Positions 24,301 to 27,300 of a DNA stretch of 64,000 bases are shown in pieces. The position numbers are program-made. Numbering within the stretch: the first letter of the stretch is position 1; each line of letters starts with the position of its first letter. The stretch lies in NCBI RefSeq assembly GCF_054482595.1, contig NZ_CM137008.1; one strand, given 5' to 3'.

Positions 24301-27300
24301 CGCATATGCGGGTGATGCGTGATCTGATAAAGCAGCATCGTTCTCCCATGGAGCTGATGACGATGCTGCGGTGATGTGCGCTTAAACGGGCTGCCCCTGA
24401 TGCGACATCCGCGTCGCCAGCGGTAGCCAGCACAGCACGATCAACAATCCCATTAAGGTCATCAACAACCCCAGGCTGCCCTGACCGGTTTGCGGCAACA
24501 TCGCTGATAGCGACGCCAGCACGCCGGAACCAATGTTTTGCAGACCACCGACCAGCGCGCCAGCCGTGCCCGCCAGGAAGGGGAACGGCTCCATCGCGCC
24601 GCTGGTCGCCAGCGGAAACAGCATCCCGGCACCGAAAAAGAACAGCGCGGCGGGAACAAGCAGCGTCCAGACATTCATCACGCCAAACCAGTCGGGGATC
24701 CACATCAGCAAGCCAGCCAGCAGGCAGCAGATAACCGACTGCCACATCAACGTTGAGAAGCGTTTATTGGGACGTCCGGCAAACCATGCCCCAAAAAATG
24801 CCGCCGGAATCGGCAGAATAAACAAAATACTGACCGTCATACTGCTCAGCCCTAACACCGCGCCCATCAGCACGCCGGAGCAGGCTTCAAAGGCGGCAAT
24901 CCCGGCCAGACCGCCAATCAGCATCAGCAAATAACAGTTAAAACCGCCGTTACCGAAAAGCGTTTTATAACTGGTAAGCAGGCGCGTGCGCGGTGCATCG
25001 ACCGGACGCGTTTCCGGCATCCAGCGGGCCATACTGAAGGTCACGCCAGCACAAAGAACCAACAAAAAGAGATAACAGGCGCGCCAGTTCCACATCGTAT
25101 CCAGCAGACCGCCGATTAGCGGTGCGAGCAACGGACTAACAAGAATCCCCATGTTTAACAGGCTGTTAGCATGGCGCAACTGTGTCCGTTCATATAAATC
25201 ACGCGGCAAAGTACGCGCCATTACGCCGCCAACGCCGGTGCCCATCCCCTGCATCGCGCTGGCGGCAATCAATACCGTCAAACTGGAGGTCGTGACCGCG
25301 ACCAGCGTTGCCAGCATAAAAATGGACATTCCGACGAGGATCACTGGTCGGCGACCCACGCGGTCGGATATCGGGCCATAAAACAGCTGCGAGACACCGT
25401 AAGTCAGCAGATAAGCGCCCATTACGCTCTGCACCGCCCCTTCACGGACGTTGAGATCGCGCGCCATATCGGCAATAGCTGGAATATAAATGGTTTGCGC
25501 CATCTGACCGACGGCCACGAGTAATACCAACATCAATAACAAATTGACGTTTCTATGCCTTTTCATTATCACGGATGCTTTTATAAAAATAATTAGAATA
25601 AGTCACTACGCATTCCCATAAATGCGGGAGAGGAATCTATCACATTGATGAATGTTAGCCAGATATGTGCCGGGAATGGCGAAAAGCAAAACGGCAGAAT
25701 ATGTAAACAAAAGCGGCAATAAATGTTGCCGGGAGGGATGGTAGGTCGGAGAAGATGCGTCAGCATCGCATCCGACACCAACTCACACGCTAAATATAAA
25801 AGGGGAGCGGTTACCCGCTCCCCTTTGGTGCGACTTGAATCTGAATTACTTCAGGTATTTCAGAACAGCATCAAGCAGTTGCAGTGCTGCAACAATGAGT
25901 TTGAGGATAAGAATGGCGATATCCACCAGGCTCATACGCGTCTCCTGTGGTTCAGGAGCACTGCCAGCTGACGTACCTTTCCGCTGCCTGTTGCCAGCTG
26001 TTGTGCACGCGGTATCTCAAGGAGAAACGTTGTGCTTGTTGACATAACACAGTGTGCTCACGCGGGGTTAAGGCGCTGACGGCACCACCCGTTTCAGCCA
26101 GGACTTAGTGCGCCGGGTAACGATGCGGCCCCCGCATAACACATTGCGTACAGTGATATTATAGAAGTTTACTGTATAAATAAACAGTAATATTTAGACA
26201 AAACGCAAACTGTGATCGATACTCAACTATGTACTAAATACGTCAAAATTCGTGCCGAAATTGCGCGTTCTGCGCGGAACAGGTATACTTTCAGTGTTGA
26301 CATAATACAGTGTGCTTTGCGGTTACCAGCCGCAGGCAGCTGACGAAACCTCGCTCCGGCGGGGTTTTTTGTTACCTGCAATTCAGTATAAAACGTGATC
26401 AACCCCTCAATTTTCCCTTGCTGAAAAATTTTCCATTGTCTCCCCTGTAAAGCTGTGCTTGTATAAATATTGTTAAACACAAAACCAACAAGGTCCCCAA
26501 TGACTACTTCCATGTTCAACGCAAAACTACTACCAACTGCGCCATCCGCCGCAGTGGTCGTCGTGCGTGTGGTGGTGGTCGTCGGCAATGCGCCGTAGGG
26601 ACTGGAACAACACACGATTCCAAAACCCCGCCGGCGCAAACCGGGCGGGGTTTTTCGTTTAAGCACCTCCCGGGAAGTCGGCCCAGAAGAAAAGGACTGG
26701 AGCATGGCAAGTTCGGGCACAACATCGACGCGTAAGCGCTTTACCGGCGCAGAATTTATCGTTCATTTCCTGGAACAGCAGGGCATTAAGATTGTGACGG
26801 GCATTCCGGGCGGTTCTATCCTGCCTGTTTACGATGCTTTAAGCCAAAGCACGCAAATCCGCCATATTCTGGCTCGCCATGAACAGGGCGCGGGGTTTAT
26901 CGCTCAGGGAATGGCGCGCACCGACGGTAAACCGGCGGTCTGTATGGCCTGTAGCGGACCGGGTGCGACTAACCTGGTGACCGCCATTGCCGATGCGCGG
27001 CTGGATTCCATCCCGCTGATTTGCATCACCGGTCAGGTTCCCGCCTCGATGATCGGCACCGACGCCTTCCAGGAAGTGGACACCTACGGCATCTCTATCC
27101 CCATCACCAAACACAACTATCTGGTCAGACATATCGAAGAACTCCCGCAGGTCATGAGCGATGCCTTCCGCATTGCGCAATCAGGCCGCCCTGGCCCGGT
27201 GTGGATAGACATTCCTAAGGATGTGCAAACGGCAGTTTTTGAGATTGAAGCACAGCCCGCGGTGGCAGAAAAAGCCGCCGCACCTGCCTTTAGCGAAGAA

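Follow-up and report, generated by a model that had tools for sequence, protein, structure and literature searches.

The analysed window, i.e. the complete 64 kb stretch of DNA, carries the chromosomal tisB/istR-1 type I toxin–antitoxin locus of Escherichia coli at its usual site between emrD and ivbL–ilvBN, an assignment to which we attach a probability of about 97%. The locus is a canonical, previously described system with a common toxin allele, and nothing in it is new. The value of the result lies in the quality of annotation and not in discovery: a reader given the sequence alone was able to recover a toxin gene of fewer than 60 codons together with its unannotated sRNA partner. The system itself is a textbook model of ribosome-standby regulation and of SOS-induced persister formation.

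Genomic position and identity of the locus

A sequence search shows that the 586 bp region 25790–26375 matches E. coli XH990 (chromosomal record NZ_CP019359.1) with 100% identity and with unchanged coordinates, which makes the window the initial 64 kb of this record. In the RefSeq record the gene order is emrD (minus strand), tisB (minus strand), ivbL (26500–26598, plus strand), ilvB and ilvN, and tisB is annotated there without an istR feature. The preliminary description of this region had regarded the locus as missed by the ORF track. This is correct in so far as tisB lies below the 60-amino-acid cut-off of that track, but RefSeq does annotate the gene. E. coli K-12 MG1655 shares this neighbourhood, and its annotation there includes tisB, the two RNAs IstR-1 and IstR-2, and a small protein, ysdE.

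Window positions 25560–26610 were aligned globally with the reverse-complemented MG1655 locus (Table 1). Identity across the locus is ∼99%, with seven substitutions in the 586 bp of 25790–26375 and none in 25932–26195, a segment that comprises the tisAB 5′ UTR, tisA, the standby and target region, the tisAB −10 element and the LexA box. Orthology to K-12 tisB/istR is supported by the shared position between emrD and ivbL–ilvBN (a synteny that is also found in other genera), by this level of identity and by matches to the TisB protein models and the Rfam istR model. The preliminary description had named the region as a tisB/istR-1 type I toxin–antitoxin locus and had proposed alignment to K-12 as one check, with a lack of nucleotide similarity to count against it. 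Alignment, synteny and family models all agree with its assignment, and every element that it listed is present, at coordinates that are exact or off by 1–3 nt.

Table 1. Features of the tisB/istR-1 locus in window coordinates.
Feature	Position	Strand	Remarks
ysdE	25648..25722		K-12 feature mapped by alignment
tisAB mRNA intrinsic terminator	25799..25826	−	Inverted repeat; perfect 12 bp stem, 4 nt loop, then TTTTATATTT
tisB CDS	25846..25935	−	29-residue hydrophobic toxin MSLVDIAILILKLIVAALQLLDAVLKYLK, Ser2 allele; RefSeq tisB WP_000060506.1; coordinates of K-12 tisB mapped by alignment coincide
tisA	25932..26045	−	37-codon ORF in the tisB leader; identical to K-12; ATG inside the IstR-1 target
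tisAB 5′ UTR	25936..26151	−	∼216 nt; 5′ end placed from the −10 element; 100% identical to K-12
tisB Shine–Dalgarno	25941..25946	−	AGGAGA, 5 nt upstream of ATG
IstR-1 target (ribosome standby region of tisAB mRNA)	26039..26059	−	∼+93 to +113 if +1 is near 26151; function in K-12, PMC6690012, PMC4147584
tisAB promoter −10	26158..26163	−	TATAAT (perfect); as in PMC11264685 Table 1
LexA (SOS) box	26170..26189	.	TACTGTATAAATAAACAGTA; overlaps the −35/spacer of the tisAB promoter; identical to K-12
IstR-2 promoter	26195..26223	+	−35 TAGACA, 17 nt spacer, −10 GATACT; K-12 has TGGACA; otherwise as in PMC11264685 Table 1
IstR-2, long form	26231..26370	+	140 nt; MG1655 ncRNA b4616 maps here
IstR-1 promoter	26261..26289	+	−35 TTGCGC 26261–26266, 17 nt spacer, −10 TATACT 26284–26289; as in PMC11264685 Table 1
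IstR-1 antitoxin sRNA	26298..26370	+	∼73–75 nt; MG1655 mapping; 5′ 20–22 nt antisense to the tisAB leader
Terminator common to IstR-1 and IstR-2	26353..26371	+	Intrinsic; GCTCCGGCGGGGT then T-run; stem 26353–26365

The TisB toxin gene and its transcript

The peptide encoded on the minus strand, which had been read from the sequence as the 29-residue TisB, scores above the curated cut-offs of three TisB models: Pfam PF13939 (TisB_toxin; 37.6 bits, cut-off 25) and the NCBIfam equivalogs NF011340 (69.9, cut-off 53) and TIGR04459 (61.5, cut-off 38), the latter two over residues 1–29 of 29. The Shine–Dalgarno sequence AGGAGA is reported to be 100% conserved in E. coli (PMC11264685 Table 1). Downstream of the gene, the terminator differs from that of K-12 by a single base in its loop, at 25813.

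From the −10 element we infer a tisAB +1 near 26151. The published RNase III cut at +106 would then fall at ∼26046, within the duplex with IstR-1, which supports this placement. Counted from the same position, the tisA ATG (26045) is at +107, the Shine–Dalgarno sequence at +206 and the tisB ATG at +217.

Residue 2 of TisB is Ser and not the Asn of K-12, as had been suspected, and the alignment reduces this to one base at 25931 (codon AGC versus AAC in K-12), the sole base change in the coding sequence. Ser2 is the majority allele of E. coli and Asn2 of K-12 is the minority one: the published frequency of TisB-N2S among E. coli tis/istR loci is 85%, laboratory strains of the B lineage have it too (PMC11264685), and a 63-mer centred on tisB codon 2 of the window is found unchanged in 3288 of the 4358 E. 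coli genomes that carry the locus (75%). In the same published work the toxicity of TisB-N2S at low induction somewhat exceeded that of the K-12 allele, and survival of ciprofloxacin was the same (PMC11264685). Residue 2 is Ser or Gly in all 53 enterobacterial loci of the cross-species scan described below and Asn in none of them, and the K-12 state thus looks derived.

The antitoxin RNA and predicted SOS control

On the plus strand, the Rfam istR model (RF01400) matches 26241–26370 with 145.4 bits (gathering score 45) and over its full length (model positions 1–130 of 130). The gene is divergent from tisB and has its own promoter and an intrinsic terminator. An IstR-1-like RNA with a −10 element tatact and a terminator had been proposed at about 26296–26371; K-12 IstR-1 maps to within a few nucleotides of this and both elements are found. 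In the promoter of the long form the window has a −35 element TAGACA in place of the K-12 TGGACA (change at 26196), and it is a minority variant since TGGACA is present in 94.5% of E. coli loci (PMC11264685). Further differences from K-12 affect position +2 of IstR-2 (26232) and one base upstream of the IstR-1 −10 element (26282). The remaining two, at 26338 and 26339, exchange GA for AG in the body of IstR-1. A U–A and a U·G pair of the predicted stem are thereby swapped, and the fold predicted for the RNA stays the same (−32.8 versus −32.5 kcal mol−1).

The LexA box between the two transcription units agrees with the consensus TACTG(TA)5CAGTA at 18 of 20 positions (two mismatches). It is the only such site in the 64 kb window, and none was found in 100 shuffled sequences. 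This box had been noted previously as a consensus site; its placement can now be refined, as it covers the −35/spacer of the tisAB promoter, where it forms a predicted LexA operator, and adjoins the IstR-2 promoter, which begins just downstream of it. The description of the locus as SOS-regulated needs qualification. It stands for the toxin mRNA and for IstR-2, to which SOS control is limited (PMC11264685), but not for IstR-1, which has its own promoter and is uninduced by DNA damage (PMC4147584). The SOS-induced IstR-2 is not a repressor of tisB (PMC11264685).

Predicted pairing of IstR-1 with the tisAB leader

The 5′ end of IstR had been described as duplicated at 26036–26060, such that the tisAB leader carries its complement. 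This duplication is borne out by a DNA repeat in which 26037–26058 and 26295–26316 match at 21 of 22 positions, and the lone mismatch becomes a G·U pair in the RNA. By our estimate, the number of such repeat pairs expected by chance in a 611 nt region is ∼1e-6. The pairing register comprises 23 consecutive complementary positions (26295–26317 with 26037–26059), two of them G·U. Within IstR-1 this leaves 20–22 contiguous pairs, depending on whether the RNA starts at 26298 or 26296, compared with a complementarity of 21 nt given in the literature (PMC4147584). The paired site lies 94–113 nt upstream of the Shine–Dalgarno sequence and not at the ribosome-binding site.

A duplex calculation with RNAduplex for full-length IstR-1 against the whole mRNA gave −73.5 kcal mol−1, compared with −52.0 ± 4.2 for shuffled sequences (best −71.0). 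This control discriminates poorly because the calculation ignores intramolecular structure and extended duplexes are always available to long GC-rich RNAs, and it was superseded by the analysis of contiguous pairs and by the covariation count given below. A candidate second target of IstR-1 in the window, a run of 15 pairs at 37955–37974 (plus strand) antisense to adeD, was rejected as a chance match, with shuffled 20-mers giving an average of 0.21 sites.

Conservation in other species

A pattern back-translated from LQLLDAVLKY at the C-terminus of TisB, which is independent of the RNA elements, was used to scan one genome per species. This yielded 57 loci, 53 of them in Enterobacteriaceae: Escherichia, Citrobacter, Salmonella diarizonae, Enterobacter, Leclercia, Lelliottia, Kosakonia, Phytobacter, Superficieibacter, Franconibacter, Atlantibacter, Trabulsiella, Intestinirhabdus and Huaxiibacter. 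Three of the non-enterobacterial matches (L024, L037 and L059) lie inside unrelated longer ORFs and the other (L017), a 243 nt contig labelled 'Bacillus' with an E. coli-like TisB, is probably a contamination; all were set aside. The tisB ORF has exactly 29 codons in each of the 53 enterobacterial loci. For 46 loci from other species at least 480 nt of upstream DNA was available, and every one of these has a LexA-like box 214–256 nt upstream of the tisB ATG and a repeat pair with at least 19 of 22 matches in the same layout. The Rfam istR model scored above its threshold in all 13 loci tested, from 13 genera.

In a gapless alignment in which the IstR 5′ end is joined to its leader target, the 22-pair intermolecular helix is 98.6% paired, with the register chosen from similarity to the E. 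coli sequence and with sequences that are related by descent. Registers slid by 1–3 columns are 21–49% paired and contain at most one double-sided change, and in the alignment no pairing is seen in the columns flanking the helix. Double-sided compensatory changes are present in four of the 22 pairs; columns 16/67 are G–C in 25 distinct sequences and A–U in 13. Some genera have a C·A mismatch near the 5′ end of IstR-1 (nine distinct sequences in columns 14/69 and three in columns 16/67). A similar signal could result from gene conversion between the two DNA repeats in place of selection for pairing. The cross-species analysis adds small supporting points, namely the compensatory changes in the duplex, the loss of the tisA start in most genera (see below) and the absence of Asn2 from the 53 loci.

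tisA and alternative interpretations

The ATG of tisA within the IstR-1 target and its stop codon, which overlaps the tisB ATG (ATGA), are what one would expect if tisA were a real upstream coding gene, translationally coupled to tisB as in mok–hok, with IstR-1 blocking the tisA start codon and not a standby site. The >99% conservation of tisA within E. coli (PMC11264685) points the same way. Across genera the picture is different: among 47 loci the codon homologous to the tisA start reads ATG in 15, ACG in 31 and ACA in one, and several other loci have a disrupted frame downstream, with tisB, the target and IstR retained throughout. The U of this start codon is the covarying column 67 of the duplex alignment. 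Judging from these codons and frames, the tisA ORF is not conserved across genera. Loss of its start in most of them fits the absence of experimental evidence for its translation (PMC11264685), and the K-12 work favours the standby mechanism (PMC6690012, PMC4147584). We therefore consider this coupled, start-codon-blocking reading of tisA very unlikely.

That the locus has decayed, for instance through silencing of the toxin or failure of the antitoxin promoter, is hardly credible either. The module is dispensable, as ∼20% of complete E. coli genomes do not have any of it, and compared with K-12 the window has changes in the −35 element of IstR-2 and at two positions of the IstR-1 body. Against this, the tisB ORF is intact with a full-length equivalog score, the 5′ UTR, LexA box, tisAB −10 element, Shine–Dalgarno sequence and IstR-1 −35 and −10 elements are identical to K-12, the changes in IstR-1 keep its predicted fold and the Ser2 allele has been shown to be toxic (PMC11264685). 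A negligible probability can be given to the view that an intergenic region happens to contain a small ORF, a LexA-like palindrome and a repeat that do not form a gene system. ORFs of 29 codons are indeed common in general, with 21 ORFs of at least 20 amino acids overlapping the same 1 kb, but family-model scores above curated cut-offs for both TisB and istR, the lack of LexA matches in shuffled sequences and the estimated rarity of the repeat are not accounted for in this way, and ORF length, box and pairing are conserved across 14 genera. An intact tisB/istR-1 locus remains the preferred reading.

Presence and absence in E. coli

Of 5426 complete E. coli genomes 4358 carry the module, in every case on the chromosome, while its flanks are found in 5420. 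In strain CFT073 ∼100 bp of unrelated sequence take the place of the segment that corresponds to window positions 25735–26367 (633 bp, from the tisB terminator through the IstR terminator), and the other low-coverage matches among the E. coli genomes have the same span missing. These CFT073-type genomes account for the ∼20% mentioned above. Variation of tis/istR in presence and in copy number has been reported previously (PMC11264685). The emrD–tisB/istR–ilvB synteny extends across 14 genera, so that absence of the module is most simply a loss; this suggests secondary loss in the CFT073-type genomes and argues against a recent insertion of the module into E. coli.

The population pattern, in which the module acts as a discrete presence/absence unit, might offer a modest new point if its loss, or the combination of TisB-S2, the IstR-2 −35 element TAGACA and the swap in the IstR-1 stem, measurably altered SOS-induced persistence in uropathogenic lineages. 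We regard this as improbable. That a clinical urine isolate has the locus intact and with the majority Ser2 allele is useful context for studies of persistence, yet it is expected.

Proposed mechanism

The functional basis of the TisB/IstR-1 system was established in K-12 (PMC6690012, PMC4147584, PMC2826370). There, the +1 mRNA is inert, the +42 species exposes the standby site, loading of the 30S subunit depends on S1, and IstR-1 blocks loading and leads via RNase III to the +106 species (PMC6690012, PMC4147584). Two reports describe TisB as depolarizing the inner membrane and promoting persister formation (PMC2826370; PMC8145889). The mechanism that we infer for the present locus, comprising control by LexA, processing of the mRNA, loading at the standby site, cleavage by RNase III and the toxicity of TisB, is transferred from these experiments because of the sequence identity of the locus.

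LexA bound to its box would repress the leftward tisAB promoter, and its removal upon DNA damage would allow the tisAB mRNA to be made. The primary transcript is expected to be untranslatable. Once its 5′-terminal 41 nt have been removed, a single-stranded standby site would become accessible ∼100 nt upstream of the ribosome-binding site of tisB, which is itself structured. A 30S subunit would load there via ribosomal protein S1 and slide to the tisB start. TisB, presumably a helix over its 29 residues, would insert into the inner membrane and collapse the proton-motive force and ATP levels, leaving dormant, drug-tolerant cells. IstR-1, made from its own promoter on the opposite strand and uninduced by damage, would pair through its 5′ 20–22 nt with the standby site, which would block 30S loading and trigger the cleavage by RNase III that yields the inert +106 mRNA. 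Toxin should thus appear only once the induced mRNA outnumbers IstR-1.

Comparison with known systems

Compared with K-12 tisB/istR-1 (b4618/b4616), the window has the same site, element order and spacing, and the tisAB 5′ UTR, the LexA box, tisA, the IstR-1 promoter elements and the pairing regions are 100% identical. As judged from the alignment, none of the seven substitutions touches a defining feature. The protein encoded by the window, WP_000060506.1, is exactly the TisB-N2S consensus allele described in mSystems in 2024 (PMC11264685). Among other type I systems of divergent layout under LexA control, dinQ/agrB, and also zor/orz and shoB/ohsC, share the architecture of a small membrane toxin, a long 5′ UTR that processing converts into an active form and a divergently encoded sRNA with its pairing site far upstream of the ribosome-binding site (PMC4147584, PMC3567139), but they belong to other toxin and sRNA families, whereas the window matches the TisB and istR models specifically.

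Distribution of the tis/istR module

In the E. coli strain CFT073, ∼100 bp of unrelated sequence (positions 936–1035 of the retrieved locus) is found in place of the entire tis/istR module. A match to the module is absent from 1068 of 5426 complete E. coli genomes (∼20%). Since synteny is kept across genera, the sequence comparison suggests that this absence is a secondary loss.

In one group of E. coli genomes, a palindromic repeat ∼171 bp long (CCCTCTCCCCAAAGGGGCGAGGGG ... CCCCTCGCCCCTTTGGGGAGAGGG) takes the place of 32 bp in the interval between ysdE and the tisB terminator and falls outside the tis/istR transcripts. 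A single strain (98227) has an ISKox3 insertion located somewhere inside the 2 kb emrD–ilvB query span.

Features in the window and in the compared loci
Feature	Location	Strand	Remarks
ysdE small-protein gene	Window 25648–25722	+	Divergent stretch 25667–25691
tis/istR module span swapped out in CFT073	Window 25735–26367		633 bp, terminator to terminator
Palindromic repeat element	O111:H8 strain 8B locus (L061) 941–1111		Site between window 25739 and 25772
AsdA, antisense RNA of dnaA mRNA	Window 511–591	−	Rfam
ES036/CssrF sRNA	Window 6068–6110	−	Rfam
ROSE_2 RNA thermometer	Window 11491–11563	+	Rfam

The tisAB leader across genera

Upstream of tisB, the cross-species loci obtained from the TisB C-terminus motif scan (L003–L058) fall into two spacing classes. 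The distance from the IstR-1 target to the downstream tisB ATG is ∼123 nt in Escherichia, Salmonella diarizonae and a few Citrobacter, and ∼90 nt in all other genera among these loci. The two spacings imply that the classes differ by an indel of ∼32 nt located downstream of the standby site and upstream of the RBS. At the position of the tisA start codon, 32 of the 47 loci have ACG or ACA. A TisB C-terminus of the E. coli type (IVAALQLLDAVLKYLK) is also encoded on a 243 nt contig labelled Bacillus hominis (NZ_BOQD01000672.1), which is most likely to be enterobacterial contamination of the Bacillus assembly.

A divergent patch in ysdE

Alignment with K-12 places ten substitutions within a 25 nt stretch of ysdE, compared with a background divergence of 1–2%, and five of the 24 residues of the product are changed (window, MNVSQICAGNGEKQNGRICKQKRQ; K-12, MNVSQIYARNGELFSGRICKQKRQ). 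The patch is common to only 16 of 5420 genomes at ≥99% identity and to 40 of 5420 at ≥95%; an O157:H7 strain is among the carriers of the window-type patch, and ysdE has no PGAP call in the patch-bearing records. A recombination patch, relaxed constraint and overlap with the emrD leader are all candidate origins.

RNA elements and the IstR-2 promoter

The further Rfam matches in the window, listed in the table, all score above the gathering score. Within the IstR-2 promoter, the variant at window position 26196 gives a −35 hexamer of TAGACA. The hexamer TGGACA is reported as the IstR-2 −35 element in 94.5% of E. coli loci (PMC11264685, Table 1), and each of the two matches TTGACA at five of six positions.
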